A stretch of DNA of 64,000 bases from Escherichia coli O127:H6 str. E2348/69 (GTDB lineage Bacteria; Pseudomonadota; Gammaproteobacteria; Enterobacterales; Enterobacteriaceae). Each line of letters opens with the position of its first letter. Position 1 is the first letter of the stretch. Location of the stretch: assembly GCF_000026545.1 (NCBI RefSeq), contig NC_011601.1. One strand, given 5' to 3'. The notes beneath the pieces are model-generated. The model worked only from the letters and a program-made list of their open reading frames with translations, did no database searches and was not told the DNA's origin. The translations under genes were made by a program, and so were the position numbers. This document shows positions 1 to 26,728 of this stretch, piece by piece.

Positions 1-1901
<1,901 letters not shown>

Positions 1902-2102
1902 TTATTTCGCATCCTCTTCGCAAACACAGTGCTGACAATTCAGCAGCCTGATATTAGGCACTCAACTAATACGCTGCTGACGCTGTCCTCAACACCAGAT
2001 ATTTTCCCTAACCCGATAGTGTATGAGAAAAGATTTAACGCTGATAAACTAATCCTTTATGGTTAGGAGAAAAAATAATGTGATTATTCTGGGCTCTTAA
2101 CA

Positions 2103-2116
2103 TTGATCGTTATCAA
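2103..2116. promoter_or_regulatory. FNR-type box TTGAT-N4-ATCAA upstream of ydhY operon
   Basis: Perfect ttgatcgttatcaa palindrome ~200 bp upstream of ydhY start in an AT-rich leader; ydhY operon is known to be FNR-dependent. Confidence 0.55.
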
Positions 2117-2356
2117 TTAAAATCACAAAGCAAGAAATTATAAGTGAACTGATATTTATTATCATTTGAAATAAATTTAACTTAACCGACAATTATTTGT
2201 GAAGTTCATCGCAGAAAATAAAAATAACTTTATCGCTATAAATTAAAATACACACCGAAATTCATATAATTTCAGCAGTTGTTATTTAGAATGATTAACT
2301 GGACCGCAACTGAACTAACAATATCAGGATGAAGCTTACCGCCTCATCCTGAATGG

Positions 2357-2566
2357 TCATTTTACCAGTGCGTTAATGACTGTCTCCATCGCCTGCTTTT
2401 CCAGCTCACTGCGCTGAATGCGTTTATTGGCTAATGCTGTACGTAATACGCCTGCGATAACAATATGCTTTGGTTCCTGCCCCAGATCGCGCATTTCCAG
2501 CACAACTTTACCGACAACTCTGCACATTTCTCGGTACAGTTCATCCTCTTTTGTCCGGTTTCCCAT
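2357..2566 (-). CDS. fumD: Small protein YdhZ/FumD (69 aa)
   Basis: 69-aa ORF at the K-12 position between ydhY and pykF. Confidence 0.65.
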   Translation of the reverse strand: MGNRTKEDELYREMCRVVGKVVLEMRDLGQEPKHIVIAGVLRTALANKRIQRSELEKQAMETVINALVK

Positions 2567-3122
2567 TCTTTATACCTATTTATCATGCCAACTATCAGCA
2601 TATATCAATCTAACCAATTAAACAAAAATCAAACAAAATCAGACAAATAACGTGATAAATTATTTTAACTGTAGCAATTGAGCGATGATGTATTTATACA
2701 CCGGATGAACTTTCACTTATCCTCACACTGACAACCCCGGCACCAGACGTTGCGCAAACAACGAAGTTTTTGCGTAACCTTTTCCCTGGAACGCTGAATC
2801 TTTGATAACAATTTATTGTCTTACAAGTTGTATATTTTTTGAAACGCTGTTTTTGTTTTCCTTTTGGATTAATTTCAGCGTATAATGCGCGCCAATTGAC
2901 TCTTGAATGGTTTCAGCACTTTGGACTGTAGAACTCAACGACTCAAAAACAGGCACTCACGTTGGGCTGAGACACAAGCACACATTCCTCTGCACGCTTT
3001 TTCGATGTCACCTATCCTTAGAGCGAGGCACAACCACTTTCGTAATACCGGATTCGCTTTCCGGCAGTGCGCCCAGAAAGCAAGTTTCTCCCATCCTTCT
3101 CAACTTAAAGACTAAGACTGTC

Positions 3123-23013: not shown

Positions 23014-24609
23014 ATGAAACCTGTAAAACCACCTCGTATTAATGGACGAGTGCCGGTCCTGTCGGCACAGGAAGCGGTGAATTATATTCCCGACGAAGCA
23101 ACACTTTGTGTGTTAGGCGCTGGCGGCGGTATTCTGGAAGCCACCACGTTAATTACTGCTCTTGCTGATAAATATAAACAGACTCAAACGCCACGTAATT
23201 TATCGATTATAAGTCCAACAGGGCTTGGCGATCGCGCCGACCGTGGTATTAGTCCGCTGGCGCAAGAAGGTCTGGTGAAATGGGCATTATGCGGTCACTG
23301 GGGACAATCGCCGCGTATTTCTGATCTCGCAGAACAAAATAAAATTATTGCTTATAACTATCCACAAGGTGTACTTACACAAACCTTACGCGCCGCCGCA
23401 GCCCACCAGCCTGGTATTATTAGTGATATTGGCATCGGAACATTTGTCGATCCACGCCAGCAAGGCGGCAAACTGAATGAAGTCACTAAAGAAGACCTGA
23501 TTAAACTGGTCGAGTTTGATAACAAAGAATATCTCTATTACAAAGCGATTGCGCCAGATATCGCCTTCATTCGCGCTACCACCTGCGACAGCGAAGGCTA
23601 CGCCACTTTTGAAGATGAGGTGATGTATCTCGACGCATTGGTTATTGCCCAGGCGGTGCACAATAACGGCGGTATTGTGATGATGCAGGTGCAGAAAATG
23701 GTTAAGAAAGCCACGCTGCATCCTAAATCTGTCCGTATTCCGGGTTATCTGGTGGATATTGTGGTGGTCGATCCGGATCAAACCCAACTGTATGGCGGTG
23801 CGCCGGTTAACCGCTTTATTTCTGGTGACTTCACTCTTGATGACAGCACCAAACTTAGCCTGCCCCTAAACCAACGTAAATTAGTTGCACGGCGTGCATT
23901 ATTCGAAATGCGCAAAGGCGCAGTGGGGAATGTCGGCGTCGGTATTGCTGACGGCATTGGCCTGGTCGCCCGGGAAGAAGGTTGTGATGATGACTTTATT
24001 CTGACGGTAGAAACAGGTCCGATTGGCGGTATTACTTCACAGGGGATCGCCTTTGGCGCGAACGTGAATACCCGCGCCATTCTGGATATGACGTCCCAGT
24101 TTGATTTTTATCACGGCGGTGGTCTGGATGTTTGTTATTTGAGTTTTGCTGAAGTCGACCAGCACGGTAACGTCGGCGTGCATAAATTCAATGGTAAAAT
24201 CATGGGCACCGGTGGATTTATTGATATCAGTGCCACTTCGAAGAAAATCGTGTTCTGCGGCACATTAACTGCGGGCAGTTTAAAAACAGAAATTACCGAC
24301 GGCAAATTAAATATCGTCCAGGAAGGACGGGTGAAGAAATTTATTCGGGAACTACCGGAAATAACTTTCAGCGGAAAAATCGCTCTCGAGCGAGGGCTGG
24401 ATGTTCGTTATATCACTGAGCGCGCCGTATTCACGTTAAAAGAAGACGGCCTGCATTTAATCGAAATCGCTCCTGGCGTCGATTTACAAAAAGATATTCT
24501 CGACAAAATGGATTTCACCCCAGTGATTTCGCCAGAACTCAAACTGATGGACGAAAGATTATTTATCGATGCGGCGATGGGTTTTGTCCTGCCTGAAGCG
24601 GCTCATTAA
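23014..24609 (+). CDS. ydiF: Acyl-CoA:acetate CoA-transferase family protein YdiF
   Basis: 531-aa ORF; synteny. Confidence 0.85.
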   Translation: MKPVKPPRINGRVPVLSAQEAVNYIPDEATLCVLGAGGGILEATTLITALADKYKQTQTPRNLSIISPTGLGDRADRGISPLAQEGLVKWALCGHWGQSPRISDLAEQNKIIAYNYPQGVLTQTLRAAAAHQPGIISDIGIGTFVDPRQQGGKLNEVTKEDLIKLVEFDNKEYLYYKAIAPDIAFIRATTCDSEGYATFEDEVMYLDALVIAQAVHNNGGIVMMQVQKMVKKATLHPKSVRIPGYLVDIVVVDPDQTQLYGGAPVNRFISGDFTLDDSTKLSLPLNQRKLVARRALFEMRKGAVGNVGVGIADGIGLVAREEGCDDDFILTVETGPIGGITSQGIAFGANVNTRAILDMTSQFDFYHGGGLDVCYLSFAEVDQHGNVGVHKFNGKIMGTGGFIDISATSKKIVFCGTLTAGSLKTEITDGKLNIVQEGRVKKFIRELPEITFSGKIALERGLDVRYITERAVFTLKEDGLHLIEIAPGVDLQKDILDKMDFTPVISPELKLMDERLFIDAAMGFVLPEAAH

Positions 24610-25816: not shown

Positions 25817-26728
25817 TTATCCGGCAAGACTTACCGGTTGAGGAAATTCAGATAGGATTTCTTGTTCCGCAAAACAGTTTTTAAATTGCCTGCGGTAATC
25901 GCTGGGCGAACAGCCGACATGGCGCAAAAACAGTTTGGCAAAGTGATCGACATTTTCATAACCCACACGCCAGGAGATCTCTGCCTGTGATAATTCAGTA
26001 TTAGTGAGTGACCATTTCGCTTCCGTCATACGCCGTTGAATAACATAGTTAATAGGGGAAATACGATACTCTTTGGTAAATTCATGGCAGATATAACTGA
26101 CGCTGGCACGAAATTTTTTCGATAACTGCTCTAAAGTGATTTTTTCGCGATAGTTATTATTCAGATAGAAAAGAATATCTTTTATCAGAACATCTTTTTT
26201 AATATACCCCTGCTCCGAACGATAAGCATTTTTAAAGTTTTCGTAGTAAAGAATTGCTAACGTATAGGCAAATGCGTCCCATAACGAAGATGTTTGGCTA
26301 TTTTTACTTTGCGGCAAAATCACACTTAGCTCATTAAATAAGGTTTTAATGACTTCTTTTCCCTGCCCTGCGGCAATTACCGGGCAAGAATGCGGTTGCA
26401 GTAGCTGATTTTCCTCAGCCCCCTGAAACTGAAAGCCGTACAGCGCACAGGTACACGTCGTTGCCGGATCGTTAACGTCAGAGGCCACCGCATGCAGCCT
26501 GCCACGTTCTATCACCACAATGTCATCGGCATGCGCGACATATAACGAAGAATCGATGGTAAACCTTGCTACCCCTTTCTTGACGTAAATCAGCTCGGTT
26601 TCATTGTCATGAACGTGATGTCCAGACTCCCATTTTGGATCATCGCTAAATGCGAAACGTGAAAGCCGTGGCGTTTTACCGGCGACAAACAGCGTTTCAC
26701 TGGCATTATCAAAACAGCGTTGATACAT
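25817..26728 (-). CDS. ydiP: AraC-family transcriptional regulator YdiP
   Basis: 303-aa ORF with cupin-like N-terminus and C-terminal AraC HTH. Confidence 0.8.
   Translation of the reverse strand: MYQRCFDNASETLFVAGKTPRLSRFAFSDDPKWESGHHVHDNETELIYVKKGVARFTIDSSLYVAHADDIVVIERGRLHAVASDVNDPATTCTCALYGFQFQGAEENQLLQPHSCPVIAAGQGKEVIKTLFNELSVILPQSKNSQTSSLWDAFAYTLAILYYENFKNAYRSEQGYIKKDVLIKDILFYLNNNYREKITLEQLSKKFRASVSYICHEFTKEYRISPINYVIQRRMTEAKWSLTNTELSQAEISWRVGYENVDHFAKLFLRHVGCSPSDYRRQFKNCFAEQEILSEFPQPVSLAG

Follow-up and report, generated by a model that had tools for sequence, protein, structure and literature searches.

The stretch of DNA analysed here, referred to as the window, comprises 64,000 nucleotides of enteropathogenic Escherichia coli (EPEC) O127:H6 E2348/69, and the 1.8-kb part compared with that strain (positions 1200-3000) is 100% identical to it. 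At the left end of the window lie the first two genes of the ydhYVWXUT operon, both on the minus strand. The first operon gene, ydhY (1275-1901), encodes a 208-residue ferredoxin-like 4Fe-4S protein. The second, ydhV, encodes an aldehyde ferredoxin oxidoreductase and is represented by its 5' part (1-1254), which runs off the window; ydhY and this part of ydhV are all of the operon that the window holds. Upstream of ydhY, also on the minus strand, is fumD (2357-2566), which is followed by a terminator-like hairpin (2324-2352, minus strand) that separates it from the ydhY promoter. The genes ynhH and pykF are located farther right on the plus strand. The spacer between fumD and ydhY spans 455 bp (1902-2356) and has a G+C content of 33%, against 50% for the window; it is one of the published 'promoter islands', being rich in promoter-like signals (PMC3661553).

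Within this spacer, the plus strand at 2103-2116 reads TTGATCGTTATCAA. The half-sites of this box are palindromic, its ydhY sense strand reads TTGATAACGATCAA, and its centre (2109.5) is located 208.5 nt upstream of the ydhY ATG. The original prediction had described a perfect TTGAT-N4-ATCAA motif at these positions, and sequence analysis bore this out: the box matches all ten specified positions and is the sole perfect match within the 64-kb window. Over the window as a whole, 0.12 perfect boxes are expected, and one or more appeared in 11 of 100 dinucleotide shuffles; boxes with one mismatch numbered five, compared with 3.2 expected. Judged on this scale, the perfect match alone is weak evidence. 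The location in the ydhY spacer matters more than the match itself. When the 455-nt upstream spacer was shuffled with its dinucleotides retained, a perfect box arose in 60 of 20,000 cases (analytic expectation, 0.0018), and the box is thus unlikely to be found there by chance. A GATC site for Dam methylation (2105-2108) overlaps one of the two half-sites.

The published K-12 site

E. coli K-12 has its ydhYVWXUT promoter at the same locus. K-12 MG1655 carries the identical 14-mer at 1754678-1754691 (NC_000913.3), and its promoter core aligns with that of the window without gaps. The -10 hexamer, the start region and the 7-2-7 site described below are likewise identical, and across the core from -57 to +36 E2348/69 differs from K-12 by three substitutions, at -57, -28 and -25. 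Table S6 of Myers et al. 2013 lists TTGATCGTTATCAA at 1752702 (in older coordinates) for ydhY as a predicted, ChIP-positive FNR site with a PatSer score of 14.78, and the FNR ChIP-seq peak in their Table S5 is centred at 1752706, 2.5 bp from the box centre (PMC3688515). Their Table 1 assigns ydhYVWXUT to Category 1, 'directly activated by FNR', and gives -42.5 as the position of the site relative to the transcription start. It further records that both sigma70 occupancy and expression of the operon go up without O2, and credits the earlier binding evidence to Partridge et al. 2008 (PMC3688515). The operon is also flagged as FNR-activated in Table S8, the aerobic/anaerobic expression ratio is 0.25 for both ydhY and ydhV in Table S12, and sigma70 occupancy at ydhY rises from 47 to 177 without O2 (PMC3688515). 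Between the older coordinates and version 3 of the K-12 genome, the ydhY site is offset by 1976 and the narG site by 777. The difference presumably reflects an IS5 element of 1199 bp by which the two genome versions differ, as 777 plus 1199 agrees with 1976.

For the identical K-12 sequence, therefore, the motif, its position, in vivo occupancy by FNR, FNR-dependent anaerobic induction and the rise in sigma70 are documented. On the assumption that E2348/69, with its identical 14-mer and gap-free promoter core, behaves like K-12, these data would apply to the present strain as well. The box had been proposed to be consistent with anaerobic, FNR-dependent expression of ydhYVWXUT, a proposal that agrees well with the same 14-mer lying under an FNR ChIP-seq peak in K-12, upstream of a directly activated operon (PMC3688515). 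The comparison with published ydhY start mapping, suggested at the same time as a check, gives a site at -42.5, a class II position compatible with the proposal, and there are no indels between K-12 and E2348/69 from the box to the start. The description of the site as ordinary but well defined was also apt, given that it is an FNR site already in print. Altogether, we assign a probability of about 95% to the reading that the box is the FNR-binding site of the class II FNR-dependent ydhYVWXUT promoter, which is already known.

Because CRP and FNR recognise related palindromes, cross-recognition is conceivable in principle, and one might ask whether the main protein at the site is a different regulator of the CRP/FNR family, such as CRP. 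We consider this very improbable: the half-sites are TTGAT and ATCAA rather than GTGA and TCAC, the motif TGTGA-N6-TCACA is matched at 6 of its 10 core positions, and direct measurements in K-12 showed both occupancy by FNR and expression that depends on fnr (PMC3688515).

Architecture of the promoter

The published distance of -42.5, which we took second-hand from Myers 2013 and which traces to Partridge 2008, sets the register of the remaining promoter elements. Calculated in this way, transcription of ydhYVWXUT would start at 2067 (minus strand), give or take 1-2 nt. In older K-12 coordinates the derived start is 1752666, which coincides with an anaerobic sigma70 ChIP-seq peak at 1752666 (Myers Table S1, PMC3688515). 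As the derived +1 base is C, an unusual start base, the true start may shift by a base or two. The box itself occupies -49 to -36, the location of a normal -35 hexamer, and a generic sigma70 scan found no -35/-10 pair for the 2067 start. By its spacing, we infer that the hexamer CATTAT at -13 to -8 (2075-2080, minus strand), as read from the sequence, is the -10 element.

The ydhY 5' leader (1902-2066, minus strand) measures 166 nt including the start base at 2067, compared with 165 nt in K-12, relative to which it has a 1-nt insertion. A search of Rfam with positions 1700-3000 of the window gave no match at E values up to 1, and the z-score of the leader fold (-1.8) is unremarkable. The leader thus gives no support for a riboswitch or another known type of RNA element.

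At the beginning of the transcribed region, the inverted heptamer pair TAACCAT-AA-AGGATTA at +3 to +18 (2050-2065, minus strand) resembles a NarL/NarP 7-2-7 site and is a candidate site for repression by nitrate or nitrite. Both heptamers match TACYYMT at 6 of 7 positions; the ydhY promoter region contains such 6/7 matches only and no exact TACYYMT heptamer. The candidate site lies over the start region, a placement that would fit repression by occlusion. The title of Partridge et al. 2008 (Microbiology 154:608) names NarL and NarP as regulators of ydhYVWXUT, and a paper on sigmaS lists the operon as FNR/NarL-regulated (PMC3141248).

In overall design, the promoter shares with the class II FNR promoters of narG, nirB, dmsA, fnrS and yfiD a TTGAT-N4-ATCAA box over the -35 region, a weak or absent -35 hexamer and anaerobic induction, and several class II FNR promoters are co-regulated by NarL/NarP. 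Its box is centred at -42.5 rather than at the usual -41.5, one base farther out, and only ydhY and fnrS are listed at that distance (Myers Table 1, PMC3688515). At narG, moreover, NarL activates from far upstream, whereas the NarL-like candidate of ydhY lies just downstream of the start, which would imply repression. The FNR box of K-12 narG is the same 14-mer, TTGATCGTTATCAA, including the 4-nt spacer. However, it is in the opposite orientation to its gene and its flanks are unrelated, so that we regard the shared 14-mer as a coincidence.

The upstream Fur-like box and a putative second promoter

Farther upstream, centred near -93, the minus strand at 2151-2169 carries a Fur-box-like sequence, TCAAATGATAATAAATATC, which matches GATAATGATAATCATTATC at 14 of 19 positions, a score equalled by 27 of 500 shuffles. 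In an Escherichia-like metagenome contig (L011), 16 of 20 positions of this block are conserved, against about 50% identity in the surrounding spacer. Banerjee et al. 2020 reported a Fur ChIP-seq peak of strain CFT073 in the ydhY promoter at 1910890 (PMC7157518), for which the Fur-like box is a candidate: about 15 bp separate the peak from the block, and the FNR box centre lies 65 bp downstream of the peak. In the fur mutant, ydhY expression was 0.07 of the wild-type level, and the authors report Fur-dependent activation of ydhYVWXUT (PMC7157518).

The Fur-like box overlaps the -35 element of a promoter-like pair on the minus strand, in which ATGATA (2165-2160) is separated by a 17-nt spacer from the -10 element TATAAT (2142-2137). 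This pair scores 10/12, and the FNR box might serve it as a second promoter. FNR bound at about +14 to +27 would then block the upstream ATGATA-17-TATAAT promoter while it activates the downstream one; alternatively, the palindromic box could drive a divergent plus-strand transcript from TATAAG at 2139-2144. Beyond the score and the overlap with the Fur-like box, such a role would fit the in vitro finding that RNA polymerase needs no FNR to transcribe the cloned promoter region of ydhY, and prefers sigmaS (PMC3141248), and the listing of the spacer as a promoter island (PMC3661553). However, six promoter-like sites were found in this AT-rich region against 4.1 expected, and the upstream pair may itself be a chance occurrence. 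No mapped start is reported at the pair in the literature examined, and Myers et al. report activation only (PMC3688515). In addition, TATAAG is devoid of the critical final T of a -10 hexamer, and the block at 2150-2131 is poorly conserved in the metagenome contig, with 9 of 20 positions retained. We consider this additional role of the box decidedly unlikely. Alternatively, the upstream pair could give rise to the sigmaS-preferring transcription that is seen in vitro without FNR (PMC3141248).

An even more elaborate scheme can be drawn, in which the ydhY region would integrate three signals through closely packed sites. The conserved Fur-like box would underlie the published activation by Fur, perhaps by displacing H-NS from the AT-rich promoter island, while the FNR box would activate one promoter and silence the upstream TATAAT one. 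We regard this scheme as unlikely, and keep to the reading of the box as an FNR site that activates the ydhYVWXUT promoter.

Conservation of the site

Of 5426 complete E. coli genomes, 5423 contain the spacer, at 94% to 100% identity. Alignment of seven diverse E. coli revealed that 34 of its 455 columns are variable. Only one of these is located within the box, in the N4 segment, which reads AACG or AATG on the sense strand; both half-sites, the -10 hexamer and the 7-2-7 site are invariant. An exact 28-nt core with a perfect box occurs with AACG in 4994 genomes and with AATG in 325, including O157:H7 and O145. The sum, 5319 of 5426, is a lower bound for the perfect box.

Outside the species, YdhY orthologues identified by protein search are patchy in distribution: after Escherichia come a metagenome protein (88%), Budvicia (81%), Brenneria (78%), Edwardsiella (73%) and Symbiopectobacterium (71%). 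An AOR-type (aldehyde ferredoxin oxidoreductase) gene is found downstream of each ydhY orthologue except that of the Escherichia-like metagenome contig, where the downstream gene has no Pfam match. This contig has a fumD-like gene upstream, a perfect box, TTGATGACGATCAA, the hexamer CATTAT at the same distance and the heptamer pair TAACCCT-AA-AGGATTA. The blocks containing its box, -10 hexamer and 7-2-7 site are identical at 13-17 of 20 positions, whereas most of the spacer is near 50%; the last 20 nt of the leader, including the GAGGA ribosome-binding site, are identical.

Edwardsiella tarda has TTGACAATGATCAA together with TACTAT at -13 to -8. In Budvicia, the corresponding elements are TTGAGCTTGATCAC, CATTAT at -13 to -8 and TACCCAG-TA-AGAGGTA at +1 to +16. 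Since two-mismatch boxes are frequent in such AT-rich spacers, the case of Budvicia rests on the shared spacing. E. coli, the metagenome contig, Edwardsiella and Budvicia all retain the G that precedes the promoter-proximal ATCA. Brenneria carries a degenerate box, ATGACGTTAATCAC, with at least three mismatches, 454 nt upstream of the ATG, and in Symbiopectobacterium the corresponding place holds no box with up to two mismatches. In the leader of Brenneria roseae (L010, about 1330-1450), what we take to be an ERIC-like repeat has apparently been inserted between the degenerate box and ydhY, which lengthens the distance from box to ATG to these 454 nt. In two more distant relatives (L014 and L016), ydhY follows moaA/fdhD-like genes after a gap of 42-64 bp, without a promoter of its own to compare.

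The arrangement of box, -10 hexamer and NarL-like site predates the genus. The low G+C content of the spacer, its listing as a promoter island and the jump of orthologues from Escherichia to Budvicia, Brenneria and Edwardsiella suggest that the operon was horizontally acquired.

These comparisons also bear on whether the box might be a chance match without function. Perfect boxes do arise in whole-window shuffles at the frequency given above, and many strong predicted FNR sites are unbound in vivo (Myers, PMC3688515). The ydhY site, however, is located under a ChIP-seq peak, at the class II distance from a mapped start and in front of an operon that FNR activates. At least 98% of E. coli genomes have its half-sites unchanged, and other genera carry the site as well. 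A functionless coincidence is thus improbable in the extreme, and we exclude it because of the ChIP data and the conservation.

Elsewhere in the window, further FNR-like sites have counterparts in K-12. One is the FNR-bound TTGACGTAAATCAA, which lies inside ydiP and precedes ydiQ (Table S6 of Myers et al., PMC3688515). Its E2348/69 counterpart at 26580-26593 reads TTGACGTAAATCAG, with the last half-site base changed. Two one-mismatch FNR-like boxes, at 23768-23781 and 24101-24114, correspond in sequence and spacing to sites within ydiF, which in K-12 are predicted but not bound in vivo and are covered by H-NS and/or Fis (Myers et al., PMC3688515).

A putative model of ydhYVWXUT regulation

The arrangement of sites around the box enables us to propose a putative model for the class II FNR-dependent promoter. 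Without O2, dimeric [4Fe-4S]-FNR binds the TTGAT-N4-ATCAA box centred at -42.5. Positioned across the -35 region, the bound FNR would bring RNA polymerase holoenzyme to the weak -10 hexamer CATTAT (2080-2075), through the polymerase contacts generally known from class II FNR and CRP promoters. Transcription would then begin near 2067 on the minus strand and proceed through the 166-nt leader into ydhY and ydhV. Upon exposure to nitrate or nitrite, NarL/NarP would most likely repress the promoter at the candidate 7-2-7 site, to which sequence and conservation point, by blocking the polymerase.

In summary, the ydhY FNR site is already known and experimentally characterised in K-12, and it is conserved here. 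The present analysis adds little beyond this confirmation: the site defined in K-12 is intact in enteropathogenic E2348/69, as it is in at least 98% of the E. coli genomes sequenced. The operon ydhYVWXUT encodes a putative aldehyde ferredoxin oxidoreductase complex, and its regulation by oxygen, nitrate and iron, already in the literature, is among the few clues to its role.
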